64,000 bases of DNA from Patescibacteria group bacterium (GTDB taxonomy: Bacteria > Patescibacteriota > Patescibacteriia > Magasanikbacterales > GWA2-37-8). Made by a program: the position numbers and the translations under genes. The notes under the pieces are model-generated. The model saw nothing but the letters and a program-made list of their open reading frames with translations, did not search any database and was not told the origin of the DNA. The stretch lies in NCBI GenBank assembly GCA_004321885.1, contig SCQK01000007.1, forward strand, positions 64,001 to 128,000, written 5' to 3'. Each line of letters opens with the position of its first letter. The stretch's first letter is position 1. Positions 43,033 through 59,332 of the stretch are shown one piece after another.

Positions 43033-43064
43033 GTCATTCCCCCGACTAAGTCGGGGGAATCCAG
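43033..43064. repeat. family-B palindrome (GTCATTCCCCCGACTAAGTCGGGGGAATCCAG) in the groEL 5' region
   Basis: perfect 13-bp inverted arms; copies at 37772-37805, 43367-43399, 48556-48588, 56649-56682, 59064-59095 and 59204-59234. Confidence 0.85.
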
Positions 43065-43075
43065 TTCATTAATTT

Positions 43076-43366
43076 TTATTCAACTATCGCCAAGATGTCC
43101 TCCTGGGATAAAATTTTATATTCTTCTTTGCCGAGCTCAACCTTGTCGCCGCCCCAGGTTTTGAAAATCACATGGTCGCCGACTTTCACTTCCATTTTGG
43201 AGCGCTCACCGGATTCAAGCAGCTTGCCCGGGCCCACAGCTACCACATCGCCTTCGGCCTTTTTTCTTTCTTCCTCTGTCTTTGTTAAAACCAAACCAAA
43301 GGAAGTAACTTCTTCCTCTTTTGTCTGTTTGACCAATACATGGTCGCCTAATGGTTTTATCTGCAT
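43076..43366 (-). CDS. groES: co-chaperonin GroES
   Basis: 96 aa, MQIKPLGDHVLVK. Confidence 0.9.
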   Translation of the reverse strand: MQIKPLGDHVLVKQTKEEEVTSFGLVLTKTEEERKKAEGDVVAVGPGKLLESGERSKMEVKVGDHVIFKTWGGDKVELGKEEYKILSQEDILAIVE

Positions 43367-43399
43367 ATATTATTCTGTCATTCCCCCGACTAAGTCGGG
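43367..43399. repeat. family-B palindrome in the groES 5' region
   Basis: identity to the other copies. Confidence 0.85.
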
Positions 43400-43494
43400 G
43401 GAATCCAGTTATAATTAAAAAAAAGACGCATATTATCACTCTAAATACCAGAGTGATAACTGTGCACCTCATCTTACCATTTTCTCAAAAAATG

Positions 43495-44889
43495 TCAAGA
43501 CCTTCTGCGCCCAACCACCAAACCCCACACTCCCCACCAAAAAACCTGTCCCACGTACAATGACCACAAAAAGTGTTCAAAGAGCGCGGCCGCGAGCAGA
43601 GTAGCCAACACCGGAATGAAGACGCGATTATTCGCTGAAACAAACTGGCAGAGTTTTCTGTGGATTAAATAAAAAATAATAAAACCGAACAAGCCCAGCT
43701 CGGCAAACACCAAAACATAAGTATTATGGACCGGCAAAGAGTACAGGCTATGCGTGGCCGCCGCCAACCTGATTGGGTAAAAACCGGGGCCAACACCAAA
43801 CAAAGGATATTTTTTAATAAAAGCAAAGGCGTATTCATATTGATTTTGACGCTCGGAAATGGAGCGGGTTTCCAGCCGGGTATTGGCGCGAATGCGGGTG
43901 GCGAAGACAGGCCATAAGATGATGACAAAAGCAAAAATAACAAGCAAGCTATATGTAATTTGCTTAAAAATAAGCGAGGGGATTCTTCCGCGCGCCCCTT
44001 CAGGGCCTGGTCGAAATAACACCACTAACCAAAAAACCATTCCAACTGCCGCGGCAATCCACGCCCCGCGCGAAAACGATAAAATCAATCCGCTCAAAAC
44101 AAACGTCTGCCCAATGGAAAAAAGGATTTTGCGTCCGCCTTTTTCTATACGCGAATACAATACCAACCCCAGCACAAAAATCACCGCCAAATAAATTCCA
44201 AAAGGATTTGGCCCGCCCAAACTGCCGTACGGACGCAGAAGACGCGCGCCGGCAAACTCAATCACTCCGGCCCCGACGTCATAAGACGCGTGCCCTGCAA
44301 TTCCCAGCCACTTGCTCGCGAACACCCCTTGAACACAAAATTGATACAAGCCCAAAATCGCTTGCCCCACCCCGCCGAGCCATAACGCGCCCAGTGCCCC
44401 CCCCTTTATACTTCGTATTTGCTTGTTCGCTCGGAAGAAAAACTTCATTTTTCTTCTCTCGCTCACTTCGCAAATAAGGGGGGGCGACGGGGGGGTAAAG
44501 GCGACGACCACCCCGAGCGCCATGGCCTCAAGTAATTTGAAAACAAAATAAAAAGAAATACCCTTGTCAAAACTCTTCAAAACGCCGATTCCCAAAATAG
44601 CCAAAAAAATAATTAAATATAAAAGCGCTCGTTTTCTATTTTTCGCCCGCGCAAAAAAATCCCGTCGCGCTTCCTTGCTCCAAAATTTCTCCAGTAAAAA
44701 CAAAAGCAAAATAATCCAGAACAAAATTTCCGTGGCGTATAAGCTCACGGTTCCATATTCCCAAAATTGCCCGTTCAGTTCCCCGTATTTCCAGATATAA
44801 CGGGTTTGCCAAGGCAGGAGAAAGAAGAAAAGGAGTAAGAGGTAATACCGAATTCGTGAAATTAACATAAACAGAATGGCAAAATCCAA
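43495..44889 (-). CDS. O-antigen ligase (Wzy_C)-family membrane protein
   Basis: about 10 TM helices; FSRGAWIAAAVGM motif. Confidence 0.55.
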   Translation of the reverse strand: MDFAILFMLISRIRYYLLLLFFFLLPWQTRYIWKYGELNGQFWEYGTVSLYATEILFWIILLLFLLEKFWSKEARRDFFARAKNRKRALLYLIIFLAILGIGVLKSFDKGISFYFVFKLLEAMALGVVVAFTPPSPPLICEVSERRKMKFFFRANKQIRSIKGGALGALWLGGVGQAILGLYQFCVQGVFASKWLGIAGHASYDVGAGVIEFAGARLLRPYGSLGGPNPFGIYLAVIFVLGLVLYSRIEKGGRKILFSIGQTFVLSGLILSFSRGAWIAAAVGMVFWLVVLFRPGPEGARGRIPSLIFKQITYSLLVIFAFVIILWPVFATRIRANTRLETRSISERQNQYEYAFAFIKKYPLFGVGPGFYPIRLAAATHSLYSLPVHNTYVLVFAELGLFGFIIFYLIHRKLCQFVSANNRVFIPVLATLLAAALFEHFLWSLYVGQVFWWGVWGLVVGRRRS

Positions 44890-44892
44890 ATG

Positions 44893-56805: not shown

Positions 56806-58824
56806 TTAACTTAACACCAACTTTTTCTCCTTTTCCTCTTCCTTGTAACACTCCAGCACATCATCTATCTCCAATTTTAATTTACCCTCAAACTGCGCCC
56901 CGCACTCGCTACCCTCGGGCACTTCGTTCAAAATCTGCTTGGCCACCTGCAACTGCGACAACTTACCCAAGCCGATAATCTCTTCCCCGCGCTTTACTCG
57001 CGCTTTACAGCCCTTCTGCAGTTTGCCCTGTTCCACGCGGCCGCCGACTATCATATTGCCCTTGCCGGTGCGGAAAATCGCCACCACCTTGAACACCCCG
57101 AGTTCAGTAGTAATTTTTTCCGGACTCAACAACTTGCCCATTTCTTCTTTGACGAAATCCAGCAGGTCGTAAATTATTTTGTACTCATTATACACTAATT
57201 TTTTATCGCGCGCCATTTCTTGCGCCACCGGGTTGATGGTAACATTAAAAGCAAAAAGCATGGCGCCGGCGGCTTCGGCCTTGGCCACGTCATCTACCGT
57301 CACATTGCCCAGGCCCTTGCCCACCACGCGCACGCCCACCTCGTCATTTTTAATTTTTCCCAGCGAACCGATAATCGCTTCCAGCGAGCCGAGCGTATCG
57401 CCCTTCACCACCACGTTCAAAACCTTCTTTTGCTCGTCGCTTTCAGCCGCGCCCAGGGCAAAAGTTTCTTTTTCCGCGCCCATCTGCTTATTTTTTTTCT
57501 CTTTTATGTCAATGGCCTTGGCCCCGGCGGCCGCGGCCACGTCCAAAATATCCCCCACGGCCGGCGCCACCTTAAATCCCAGAATGCGCGCCGGACAGCT
57601 GGGCGGGGCCGTCAGCAAATTTTCTCCTTTGTGATTTTTCATGGCCCGCACCTTGCCGTAAATCTCGCCGTTTATCACCAGCGGGTCGTTCACGCGCAAA
57701 GTGCCGGTCTGCACCAAAATCGTGGCCACCGGGCCTTCGCCCTTGTCCACGTGCGCCTCAATGACCGTGCCCGCGGCCGAGCGGTCCGGATTGGCTTTAA
57801 TGCTGTCGGCATGCACGTCGGCCACTAAAAGCAACACATCAAGTAGCTTATCTATGTGCAAATTCTGTTTGGCGGAAATTTCCACCATGGGCGTGTCCCC
57901 GCCCCACTCCTCGCCTATCACTCCGTTTTGCGACAAATCAACGCGCACCTTTTGCGGGTCAGCTCCCTCTTTGTCAATTTTATTGAGCGCCACCACGGTC
58001 GGAATTTTGGCGGCCTTGATAATGTTTATCGCTTCCAAGGTTTGGGGCTTGACGCTGTCGTCGGCCGCCACCACCAGAATGGCGATGTCAGCCACCTTGG
58101 TGCCGCGGCTGCGCATCACCGTAAAGGCCTCGTGCCCGGGAGTGTCTATAAATGTCAGGGGGGATTTTTCTTTGGTTTTGGGATTGGTCCAAATCACCTG
58201 ATAAGCGCCGATGTGCTGGGTAATGCCACCAGCCTCGGATTCCATGACATTGGTGCGTCGAATAGCGTCTAACAATTTTGTTTTACCGTGGTCAACGTGC
58301 CCCATCACCACGATAACGGGCGGGCGGCGCGTGGTAGCGTCCGCGGCCAAAATTGATTCCAAATTATTTTCGTGCGCCGAGACTGCTTCGGTTTTTTGCT
58401 CGGGTTCGCGCACGGTAAAACCGAATTCCTGCGCCATCAGCACGGCCGTGTCATGGTCCAGGCGCTCGTTTTGCGCAGCCAAAATTCCGTTTTTCATGAG
58501 TTCAACGATAAGGCCGGTAACCGGCATCTGCAAAATATCGGCGAATTGGCGCACGGTCAGCTGGTTTGGTATGGCCACGCTGGCGCCGCTCGTCTGGCGC
58601 GCCTCTTTTTCCAGCTCTTTTTGTTTTTCTTTTTCCTTGCGCTCGCGCTCTTCCAGCACGAACTTTATCCGTTTCCAGGCGCGCTGAATCTGCTGGGCCA
58701 CGCGGTCATCCACTTTCACGGCCCGAGCGCCGATATCAAAACCAAACTCTGGCAAAATTTGCAAAAGTTTTTGGGGGTGGACTCGGAGTTGTCTGGCCAG
58801 TTCGCTTACGTTCATAAAGCTCAA
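56806..58824 (-). CDS. infB: translation initiation factor IF-2
   Basis: GHVDHGKT, DTPGHEAF and NKID GTPase motifs, 672 aa. Confidence 0.9.
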   Translation of the reverse strand: MSFMNVSELARQLRVHPQKLLQILPEFGFDIGARAVKVDDRVAQQIQRAWKRIKFVLEERERKEKEKQKELEKEARQTSGASVAIPNQLTVRQFADILQMPVTGLIVELMKNGILAAQNERLDHDTAVLMAQEFGFTVREPEQKTEAVSAHENNLESILAADATTRRPPVIVVMGHVDHGKTKLLDAIRRTNVMESEAGGITQHIGAYQVIWTNPKTKEKSPLTFIDTPGHEAFTVMRSRGTKVADIAILVVAADDSVKPQTLEAINIIKAAKIPTVVALNKIDKEGADPQKVRVDLSQNGVIGEEWGGDTPMVEISAKQNLHIDKLLDVLLLVADVHADSIKANPDRSAAGTVIEAHVDKGEGPVATILVQTGTLRVNDPLVINGEIYGKVRAMKNHKGENLLTAPPSCPARILGFKVAPAVGDILDVAAAAGAKAIDIKEKKNKQMGAEKETFALGAAESDEQKKVLNVVVKGDTLGSLEAIIGSLGKIKNDEVGVRVVGKGLGNVTVDDVAKAEAAGAMLFAFNVTINPVAQEMARDKKLVYNEYKIIYDLLDFVKEEMGKLLSPEKITTELGVFKVVAIFRTGKGNMIVGGRVEQGKLQKGCKARVKRGEEIIGLGKLSQLQVAKQILNEVPEGSECGAQFEGKLKLEIDDVLECYKEEEKEKKLVLS

Positions 58825-58904
58825 CTACCCTCTCCTGTTAGGGGAGGGATAAAGGGATGGGGTATCCACTCAATATCCCTAAAATCTTACTCTCTTACAC
58901 TGAA

Positions 58905-59015
58905 TTAGTCAAATACGGGAATATCGCTGGCTCCATAGTGCCCGACTTAGTCGGGGCTGTGGAGCCGTAATGCACTCTGGCTCCACGCACAGCATGGAGC
59001 CAGCGACATTTGACA
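58905..59015. repeat. family-F composite palindrome (GGCTCCATAG..CCCGACTTAGTCGGGG..CTGTGGAGCC..)
   Basis: related copies at 7895-7950 and 37895-38032. Confidence 0.7.
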
Positions 59016-59063
59016 CGCGCCCGATTTTGTGATAAAGTGATTTCACAATTAAAATAATAATTC

Positions 59064-59095
59064 TGGATTCCCCCGACTTAGTCGGGGGAATGACA
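59064..59095. repeat. family-B palindrome upstream of rny
   Basis: a second copy at 59204-59234. Confidence 0.85.
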
Positions 59096-59332
59096 GATGA
59101 GATTTTTGAGGGAATTTTTTAAGAGGAAACTCGTATGGCTCGTGCGGCTGAAACTGCCAAAAATACGCTAACGAAAACACTTTCAAGCGCTATCCGTGTG
59201 TGGGTTCCCCCGTACTTAGTCGGGGGAATGACAAACGAATCGGCCATCACTTCGGCTTTGTTTGCGTTCGTAAAATAAACAAGGCCTCTCTTCTTAAAAT
59301 TTTCGCCCGCAAAAATCGCGGAAATTTTTTGT

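Follow-up and report, generated by a model that had tools for sequence, protein, structure and literature searches.

The 64,000-nt stretch of DNA analysed here (the window; positions 64,001 to 128,000 of contig SCQK01000007.1, assembly GCA_004321885.1, from a Patescibacteria group bacterium) carries a short hairpin-forming repeat, family B, which had been noticed in a preliminary description as a palindrome recurring upstream of groEL, groES, nusA, trxA and rny. Family B is, in all likelihood, a new 32/33-nt subfamily of the repetitive extragenic palindromes (REPs) tagged with CGTC or TGTC, that is, of the NTS-like Ssn-related motifs (SRM), and a selfish or domesticated repeat acting at the DNA level. 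Its membership of this class has been established by its anatomy. Its over-representation, its lineage-specific presence, its insertions in frame within genes and a correlation between the length of a unit and its location have also been demonstrated. The placement in front of housekeeping genes is explained mainly by the insertion sites that are tolerated in a compact genome, and there is no comparative support for a regulatory RNA role of individual copies.

Seven copies of family B are present in the window, as had been counted before (Table 1). A mismatch-tolerant search with the 32-mer (three mismatches or fewer) returned the four 32-nt copies, those at 43033, 43377 and 48556 on the forward strand and at 59063 on the reverse strand, all with at most one mismatch. 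A looser search added three copies of 33 nt, in which an extra base, always identical, replaces GAC by GTAC (..AGTACGGGGG..). The 32-mer was not matched in dinucleotide shuffles of the window. Two details of the preliminary description have been corrected, since the groES copy starts at 43377 rather than 43367, and the 32 bp do not form a perfect palindrome. In fact, only 25 nt (ATTCCCCCGACT-A-AGTCGGGGGAAT) are self-complementary, and the flanks, a (T)GTC head and a CCAG tail, are conserved yet non-complementary, which gives the unit an orientation. The arrangement TGTC-ATTCC...GGAAT-CCAG is found in six of the seven copies, the tail being degenerate in the copy at 59200. The stem comprises 11-12 bp and the loop 1-3 nt, and the hairpin has a computed folding energy of -12.1 kcal/mol as single-stranded DNA (ssDNA), with z = -5.7. 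The neighbouring genes have been identified with NCBIfam as those coding for GroEL, GroES, NusA, thioredoxin, RNase Y, RsmA and IF-2, in agreement with the names groEL, groES, nusA, trxA, rny and rsmA used earlier. The inner core of family B also occurs between other outer arms, in a 41-nt hairpin GGCTCCA(C/T)AG..CCCGACTAAGTCGGG..CT(A/G)TGGAGCC located at 7904-7944 and 58926-58966.

Table 1. Family B copies, related TGTC-tagged hairpins and other features located in the window (5' UTR, 5' untranslated region; ORF, open reading frame).
Feature	Position	Strand	Context
Family B, 33-nt (TGTCATTCCCCCGACTAAGTACGGGGGAATCCAG)	37772-37804	+	inside rsmA (37637-38662, -)
Family B, 32-nt	43033-43064	+	54-nt groES-groEL spacer; 10 nt to groEL start, 11 nt from groES stop
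Family B, 32-nt	43377-43408	+	groES 5' UTR, between CIRCE and AUG; 9 nt from AUG
Family B, 32-nt, centre base T	48556-48587	+	nusA 5' UTR, 3 nt before AUG, downstream of conserved hairpin and T-run
Family B, 33-nt	56647-56679	-	infB-trxA spacer, 12 nt before trxA AUG
Family B, 32-nt	59063-59094	-	rny leader at about +18 to +50; 237 nt upstream of rny
Family B, 33-nt, degenerate tail (GGGGGAACCCAC)	59200-59233	-	middle of rny leader, 99 nt before AUG
dRS3/NTS-like relative (TGTCATTCCAGCGCAGGCGGGAATCCAC)	60888-60915	+	between rny and HU gene; matches SRM search sequence
dRS3-like relative (TGTCATTCCTGCGCAAGCAGGAATCCAG)	33199-33226	-	inside giant gene (2,7xx aa)
TGTC-tagged hairpin, subfamily ATTCCGAGCGGAGCGAGGAAT	6869-6897	-	inside ORF 5764-7455
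Two TGTC-tagged hairpins	14427-14468; 14488-14516	+	upstream of gene 13094-14425
TGTC-tagged hairpin, ATTGCGAGGAGCGAACG... subfamily	25529-25572	-	paralogous copy at 28357-28400 (+)
Tail-to-tail dimer, ATTGCGAGG... subfamily	36855-36937		whole spacer from stop of gene 36938-37561 to true start of giant gene
Tail-to-tail dimer, ATSCTGAACTTGTTTCAGSAT subfamily	37563-37623		fills spacer between rsmA and gene 36938-37561
TGTC-tagged hairpin (ATTCCGAGCGCGGCGAGGAAT)	39065-39093	-	inside Sua5/YrdC gene
TGTC-tagged hairpin (ATCCTGAACTTGCTTCAGGAT)	45717-45745	+	inside ORF 44935-45972
Three ATTGCGAGG... hairpins	51305-51342; 51830-51867; 51877-51912	+; +; -	inside ComEC ORF
Tail-to-tail dimer, ATTGCGAGG... 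subfamily	52933-53009		in frame inside leuS
Second tail-to-tail leuS dimer	54238-54314		in frame; encodes about 25 aa missing from orthologue
CIRCE variant (TTATCACTC-N9-GAGTGATAA)	43433-43459		groESL operon; separate from the repeat family, fixes transcript context
Segmental repeats	23494-23770, 27023-27233, 29263-29399; 26620-26852 and 28829-29061; 25360-25684 and 28237-28570		

The class to which family B is assigned has been studied in Neisseria. About half of the dRS3 repeats correspond to a longer oriented motif, NTS (CGTCATTCCCGCGMAVGCGGGAATCYRG), which the GIY-YIG nuclease SsnA, a protein of 94 aa, binds in the form of an ssDNA hairpin (and not as double-stranded DNA or RNA) and cleaves at a distance of a few bases on the upstream side (Chenal et al., 2025; PMC11893778). 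In this system, the GTC located 5' of the palindrome is critical for cleavage and the C located 3' of it for binding (PMC11893778); both positions are conserved in family B. SRM have been found flanking ssn genes in many phyla; Patescibacteria are not named in the main text of that work (PMC11893778). The degenerate search sequence for SRM taken from the same source, HGTCWYN(0-2)YYVSBRHN(0-5)WNVSBRGN(0-2)RNCYNB, scored 9 hits in the window, compared with an average of 0.2 over 100 dinucleotide shuffles, and it is matched by all seven family B copies and by the unit at 60888. Family B shares with SRM and NTS the (H)GTCAT head, the outer stem ATTCC.../...GGAAT and the C-Y-R-G tail (CCAG in family B), together with a high copy number, an orientation, the formation of ssDNA hairpins and an enrichment in a symbiont-type genome, as has been remarked for SRM-rich species (PMC11893778). 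On the other hand, its inner stem and loop are CCCGACTAAGTCGGG instead of GCGMAVGC, its stem reaches 11-12 bp, its first base is T and not C, and about 30-50% of the copies are inside genes here compared with 2% in Neisseria meningitidis. The format of dRS3 itself (ATTCCC-N8-GGGAAT, 20 bp) is found in the window only at 60892-60911 and 33203-33222, family B having the form ATTCCC-N13/14-GGGAAT.

A second line of resemblance is provided by the CGTC-tagged REPs, in which the tag is often TGTC, A-T pairs open the stem and CCA forms the tail, and whose members include dRS3 of Neisseria and RPE-4/6 of Rickettsia, the latter lying in frame in genes such as those for UvrD, a pseudouridine synthase and aminoacyl-tRNA synthetases (aaRS; Di Nocera et al., 2013; PMC3733652). 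The unpaired CGTC/TGTC tag, the A-T/T-A start of the stem, the CCA tail and the coexistence of singletons with inverted dimers are all found in the repeats described here, as are in-frame insertions in housekeeping genes of the same kinds as in Rickettsia (UvrD, pseudouridine synthases, aaRS). Another type of repeat made of short oriented ssDNA hairpins and inverted doublets, with a lineage-specific expansion tied to a single-copy enzyme gene, is that of the GTAG REPs and REPINs of Pseudomonas and enterobacteria, reportedly mobilised by RAYT proteins, which are IS200/IS605-type Y1 transposases. Mobilisation of family B as a REP or REPIN by such an enzyme would agree with the short length, the hairpin structure and the oriented flank of the repeat and with the REPIN-like inverted dimers of the window and of related contigs. 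This explanation is nevertheless quite improbable: the tag is TGTC and not GTAG, the ORFs of the window that were scanned revealed no RAYT or other Y1 transposase, no dedicated transposase was found for the CGTC REPs by Di Nocera et al. (PMC3733652), and the published partner of the TGTC tag class is Ssn, a GIY-YIG instead of an HUH/Y1 enzyme (PMC11893778).

Family B belongs to a wider population of TGTC-tagged hairpins. A scan for GTCAT followed by a hairpin with pairing 5-nt outer arms and then by C found 26 TGTCAT-hairpin-ATCC units in the window, compared with 0.9 for random sequence (at least 27 if the degenerate 59200 copy is included), which amounts to a density of about 0.4 per kb, or about one copy per 2.4 kb. 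By subfamily, there are about 12 copies of ATTGCGAGGAGC...GAAGCAAT, the seven of family B, four of ATSCTGAACTTGTTTCAGSAT, two of the dRS3-like type and three of ATTCCGAGCGGAGCGAGGAAT scored by the scan, to which a degenerate one seen in the sequence near 15243-15271 can be added. About half of the TGTC-tagged units are inside ORFs (leuS, comEC, sua5, rsmA and the gene for a giant surface protein), and some of the others come very close to a gene start, such as the hairpin at 14427-14468, 1 nt from the longest-ORF start of gene 13094-14425, and the dimer at 36855-36937, 5 nt from the true start of the giant gene (ATGAAAAAAATC). No strand bias with respect to replication was detected in the window, the GC skew being uniform and 13 copies (seven of family B and six related ones) being split 7:6.

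The lineage-specific character of the insertions has been revealed by comparison with relatives. The GroEL and RNase Y of the window are 100% identical to proteins recorded for a 'Patescibacteria group bacterium' MAG. The nearest relatives, as judged from these two proteins, are Candidatus Magasanikbacteria (85-87% identity in GroEL), in which the synteny around groESL, nusA, rsmA, infB-trxA and rny is kept. In one relative genome, represented by loci L032 and L036, no TGTC-tagged hairpin was found in 35 kb: its groES-groEL spacer measures 29 nt and is devoid of the element (54 nt in the window), its infB-trxA spacer 8 nt (171 nt in the window), and its nusA and rny leaders have no family B unit. 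The unit is also absent from the rny leader of L037 and from the groES 5' UTR of L030 and L032, the loci L030 and L037 being essentially free of TGTC-tagged hairpins, and the 60888 unit is lacking in the rny-HU spacers of L036 and L037. Another relative, GW2011_GWA2_46_17 (L028), has 0.46 units per kb and is therefore as dense as the window, but its units belong to other subfamilies, including near-canonical NTS units, and its groES 5' UTR has independently received other TGTC-tagged hairpins. Since the syntenic sites of the relatives are empty, every family B copy of the window is a lineage-specific insertion. The growth of the infB-trxA spacer from 8 to 171 nt is accounted for by the family B unit together with a GC-rich repeat of 64-107 nt, which lies on both sides of trxA (56199-56305 and 56723-56786). 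Further evidence comes from a Logan contig of the same organism (SRR8426592; L035), which is 100% identical to 59207-61380 and breaks exactly inside the 59200 copy, indicating that these repeats fragment assemblies. The earlier suggestion of a probable mobile element is thus supported by the empty orthologous sites, by this assembly break and by the copies lying in frame in genes.

Outside these relatives, the family B core has been found in a few other Patescibacteria metagenome-assembled genomes (MAGs), in groundwater contigs (Hainich and others) and in MAGs labelled Gammaproteobacteria. Scans of sequence collections with the core pattern matched 12 stretches from genomes, 15 from metagenomes and none from viruses, and neither pattern scans nor BLAST matched the unit in viral, phage or plasmid collections. 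The resulting list, on which the positional statistics rest, holds 35 core-bearing copies, the seven of the window and about 28 elsewhere, and includes two Burkholderiales units with unrelated flanks. These come from GC-rich Burkholderiales MAGs (L001 and L006), which have the same 23-nt core.

The rsmA copy, previously reported to be in frame, encodes LDSPVLSRGND when read antisense, and this peptide is an exact 11-aa (33-nt) insertion in RsmA relative to three orthologues. Similarly, a dimer adds 25 aa to LeuRS in comparison with its orthologue. The same protein has at least five insertions relative to that orthologue, and its gene contains two insertions of another repeat, TTTGGAAATTGGAAATTGGAAATT (53661-53691 and 54111-54141), which encodes PISNFQFP. 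On inspection of the sequence, the total length of the intragenic dimers is divisible by three. About a third of the family B copies in other contigs are in Pfam-supported genes, coding for a RluD-like pseudouridine synthase, Tgt, MiaA, UvrD, Wzy_C, a class II aaRS and a reverse transcriptase. Of the 10 copies of the 33-nt variant, 8 reside in Pfam-supported genes, compared with 2 of the 22 copies of the 32-nt form (Fisher p = 1.6e-4); 18-20 of these 22 are intergenic. This residence of the 33-nt and other 3n-long forms in genes is expected if copies arise from existing copies and only insertions of 3n nucleotides survive in coding sequence. A length variant of a single base (33 versus 32 nt) separates gene-resident from spacer-resident copies, so that the selection acting on a selfish repeat can be read in a simple way. 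It is also of biological significance that essential genes of a minimal genome, such as leuS, comEC, rsmA and sua5, tolerate many in-frame hairpin insertions.

According to the mechanism proposed here, family B would operate as DNA and, in single-stranded form, would fold into a hairpin of 11-12 bp with an unpaired (T)GTC head at its 5' side and a C(CAG) tail at its 3' side. The superfamily would have multiplied in this Magasanikbacteria-like lineage by insertion at any tolerant site. Such sites would be of two kinds: the small number of unoccupied bases in very short intergenic spacers, which are almost always found just before the next start when the genome is compact and co-directional, and in-frame positions within genes, used by the forms of 3n length (the 33-nt family B variant or the dimers). 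The accumulation in 5' UTRs of housekeeping genes would then be a by-product of where insertions survive and not the mark of a shared regulatory site. The copies would be spread by an Ssn-type or other enzyme.

The consistent 5' UTR placement emphasised in the preliminary description is real in the sense that the copies are located in transcribed 5' leaders and intercistronic spacers. Promoter-like sites upstream of groES, nusA and rny, among them those at 43498-43471 for the groESL operon and at 59010-59038 ahead of the 59063 copy, put the units inside transcribed leaders. Four family B copies are close to start codons, as had been stated, with distances now corrected to those of Table 1 (3-12 nt; probability of about 2e-4 under a naive uniform model), and two copies precede rny as announced. 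When the other subfamilies are taken into account, six or seven co-directional spacers of the window have units at 1-12 nt from a start codon. However, this placement is not conserved in relatives and the orientation is mixed, with an antisense to sense ratio of 6:1 in the window, where the trxA copy is the only one in sense to its mRNA, and of 5:11 in other contigs. In these contigs, the distances of the copies to starts are about the same as those to stops (medians of roughly 45-50 nt, with approximate ORF calls), and copies near stops or inside genes are as frequent as copies near starts, contrary to a general 5' bias.

It could be argued that the hairpin is a cis-acting RNA element of the 5' leader, at which the transcript would be processed, which would protect its 5' end from RNase Y/J, or which would modulate the translation of housekeeping mRNAs devoid of a Shine-Dalgarno (SD) sequence. 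The copies downstream of promoter-like sites and next to four AUGs are compatible with this idea, as are the predicted folding of family B RNA into hairpins of about -22 kcal/mol that leave the AUG unpaired, the presence of two copies in the leader of rny itself, the lack of SD sequences before groES, groEL and nusA in relatives, and the independent colonisation of the L028 groES UTR by other subfamilies. A role of this kind is rather unlikely, however, because the unit is absent at every orthologous site of the relatives, about half of the superfamily and two of the seven family B copies of the window are in ORFs and not in leaders, and the copies in other contigs show no start bias and a mixed orientation. 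Moreover, an Rfam 15 covariance-model scan of the window recovered, at or above the gathering score, only two tRNAs and no family matching family B, the copies are nearly identical and therefore show no covariation, and SsnA does not bind RNA (PMC11893778). A conserved RNA function in the 5' UTR is thus not supported, the placement being lineage-specific, although the transcribed stable hairpins may have side effects on individual mRNAs. A role of the SD-like GGGGGA tract as an SD donor has been rejected as well, since the GGGGG is taken up by pairing within the 11-bp stem and its distance to the AUG amounts to 15-18 nt in three of the four genes (groES, groEL and trxA); only in nusA is its spacing plausible (9 nt). 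By comparison, the HU gene has a free AAGGGGGTGA 6 nt from its AUG. The hairpins were also considered as intrinsic terminators and discarded, for none is followed by a T-run and none is terminator-like on either strand.

A palindrome upstream of several stress and housekeeping genes might also be a double-stranded operator, bound by the transcription factor of a housekeeping or heat-shock regulon (groESL, nusA, trxA, rny). One operator of this sort is CIRCE, the site of HrcA, with the structure TTAGCACTC-N9-GAGTGCTAA and a position upstream of groES or dnaK. Like family B, CIRCE is a palindrome in front of groES, but the sequences are unrelated and, as had been correctly noted, family B is not CIRCE. 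In fact, the groESL operon has its own CIRCE variant at 43433-43459, conserved in the Magasanikbacteria relatives L028, L030 and L032 behind a near-consensus sigma-70 promoter. Given this separate site, the location of family B units downstream of promoters and inside ORFs, their absence from relatives, their restriction to one lineage and the scattering of at least 27 related units through unrelated genes, an operator function is extremely unlikely.

Several features of the leaders themselves deserve mention. Between the nusA promoter and the start there is a conserved hairpin followed by a T-run (48590-48650 in the window, 4406-4524 in L028 and 4619-4760 in L032), which resembles a transcription attenuator and suggests a possible autoregulation by NusA. 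A TTGACA-17-TAnAnT promoter is followed, ahead of rny, by a leader of about 230-290 nt which is non-coding and conserved (59040-59332 in the window, 5750-6000 in L036 and 397-685 in L037). The 47-aa ORF 59135-59278, which contains the 59200 copy, is considered spurious because this region is the conserved non-coding rny leader in L036 and L037, where the ORF is not conserved; it has no Pfam hit. In addition, the reverse complement of the repeat head is ATGACA (48549-48560, 14423-14430 and 37559-37566), and longest-ORF callers consequently extend nusA and other genes into the repeat and annotate a wrong start. The true start of nusA, as deduced from orthologue comparison, is 48549-48551.

The earlier suggestion of a protein-binding site was probably right, albeit in an unexpected sense, in view of the binding of this class as ssDNA by Ssn in Neisseria (PMC11893778). 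To look for a cognate protein, a genuine SsnA was recovered from a gonococcal chromosome present in the plasmid collection, where it is flanked by eight NTS units, and was used as a tblastn query along with consensus sequences and GIY-YIG regular-expression scans. Among the best 120 SsnA relatives, the named ones are all proteobacterial. SsnA homologues are 70-79% identical among Neisseria, Xanthomonadales, Methylococcales and Thiobacillaceae (P0121-P0240), a conservation that is unusually high for a 94-aa protein across orders and that, on this sequence comparison, suggests horizontal spread. About 40 ORFs of the window were scanned with Pfam and NCBIfam, and no GIY-YIG protein or Y1 transposase was detected; the candidates for a nuclease-like partner were limited to an NYN-domain gene flanked by repeat-bearing duplications, and the only transposase-related match was an IS1595-type zinc-ribbon fragment. 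The window encodes ComEC, the channel through which single-stranded DNA is taken in, and single-stranded DNA is the substrate of SsnA in Neisseria. The chances that family B is recognised in this organism by a cognate Ssn-type nuclease are about even.

The presence of comEC is relevant for two other possibilities. The first is that Ssn-type hairpins have been co-opted in Patescibacteria, with a selected spacing of 1-12 nt between head and AUG, as start-proximal mRNA elements or as self-marks. In obligate episymbionts with DNA import through ComEC and many mRNAs translated without an SD sequence, the hairpins may insulate or stabilise housekeeping cistrons against RNase Y/J or, as self-marks, may guide an Ssn-like nuclease in the processing of imported ssDNA; such a co-option is unlikely. 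The second is that the units are primarily targets for recombination or integration, as dRS3 is for Nf filamentous phages with an IS110/Piv-type transposase (cited in PMC11893778), or signals for DNA uptake by ComEC. An arrangement compatible with integration has been found around the NYN-domain gene (14724-15248), which is flanked by a 112-nt direct repeat (14482-14593 and 15237-15348) containing a TGTC-tagged hairpin and the last 25 codons or so, with the stop, of gene 15271-16254; the NYN-domain gene has the appearance of a cassette that either entered at a repeat unit or was duplicated by way of one. Nevertheless, there is no IS110/Piv gene or prophage in the window, the viral and phage collections gave no copy, sequences for uptake are short without being palindromic, and NTS lowers instead of raising transformation in Neisseria (PMC11893778), which makes this second explanation very unlikely.

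Some observations weigh against the assignment of family B to the selfish CGTC/TGTC-tagged REPs. No Ssn-like gene (cd10448 GIY-YIG) was detected by tblastn and motif scans in the sequence searched, that is, the 64-kb window and the fetched loci L001-L033, and a transposition mechanism has not been established for the CGTC/TGTC-tagged class as a whole. The units of the window hug start codons while REPs have been reported to be stop-proximal (PMC3733652), and this strikingly close placement is only partly explained by lack of space. For the four family B copies near starts, the remainder of the spacers is taken up by promoters, CIRCE, the conserved nusA leader hairpin or other repeats, and once these are excluded the evidence for start-proximity becomes marginal. 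Finally, the described families CGTC-1 to -4 have stems of 8-9 bp and loops of 4-5 nt, compared with 11-12 bp and 1-3 nt in family B, and the dimers of the window and related loci are tail-to-tail, head-to-head dimers being predominant in the published set (PMC3733652). From these differences in stem, loop and dimers it follows that family B is a further family of the CGTC superfamily and not one of the four described.

As a member of that superfamily, family B extends the known range of the Ssn/NTS-type repeats so as to include the Candidate Phyla Radiation, where their density in the window (about 0.4 per kb) is similar to that of pathogenic Neisseria. The contrast between this density and its absence in sister lineages (0 per kb) offers a natural presence/absence system for the study of how such repeats spread and are removed. 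There is also a practical side, since these repeats break assemblies and create spurious ATGACA starts and spurious ORFs in the annotation of Patescibacteria MAGs.

Other repeats are present in the window. A second hairpin family, CCCTCCCCT-loop-AGGGGAGGG, has 11 copies (7705, 11443, 12321, 12915, 13312, 13347, 41342, 49618, 50950, 55813 and 58829), often nested in outer ACCCCTCCC/GGGAGGGGT arms and in many cases inside ORFs; at least two of them are in gene 11908-13101. A third palindrome family, (C)CACCACACCAAAA/TTTTGGTGTGGTG(G), is represented at 12343-12379, 45778-45806 and 50762-50798, all three inside ORFs. Segmental repeats of 200-330 nt (Table 1) are shared between the giant gene, at its 3' end, and ORF fragments upstream, and could represent silent cassettes, or else paralogous remnants, for the C-terminal part of the surface protein. 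Finally, a toxin-antitoxin-like pair of the HEPN/nucleotidyltransferase (MNT) type and the IS1595-type zinc-ribbon fragment have been located at 23886-24592 and 26090-26455.

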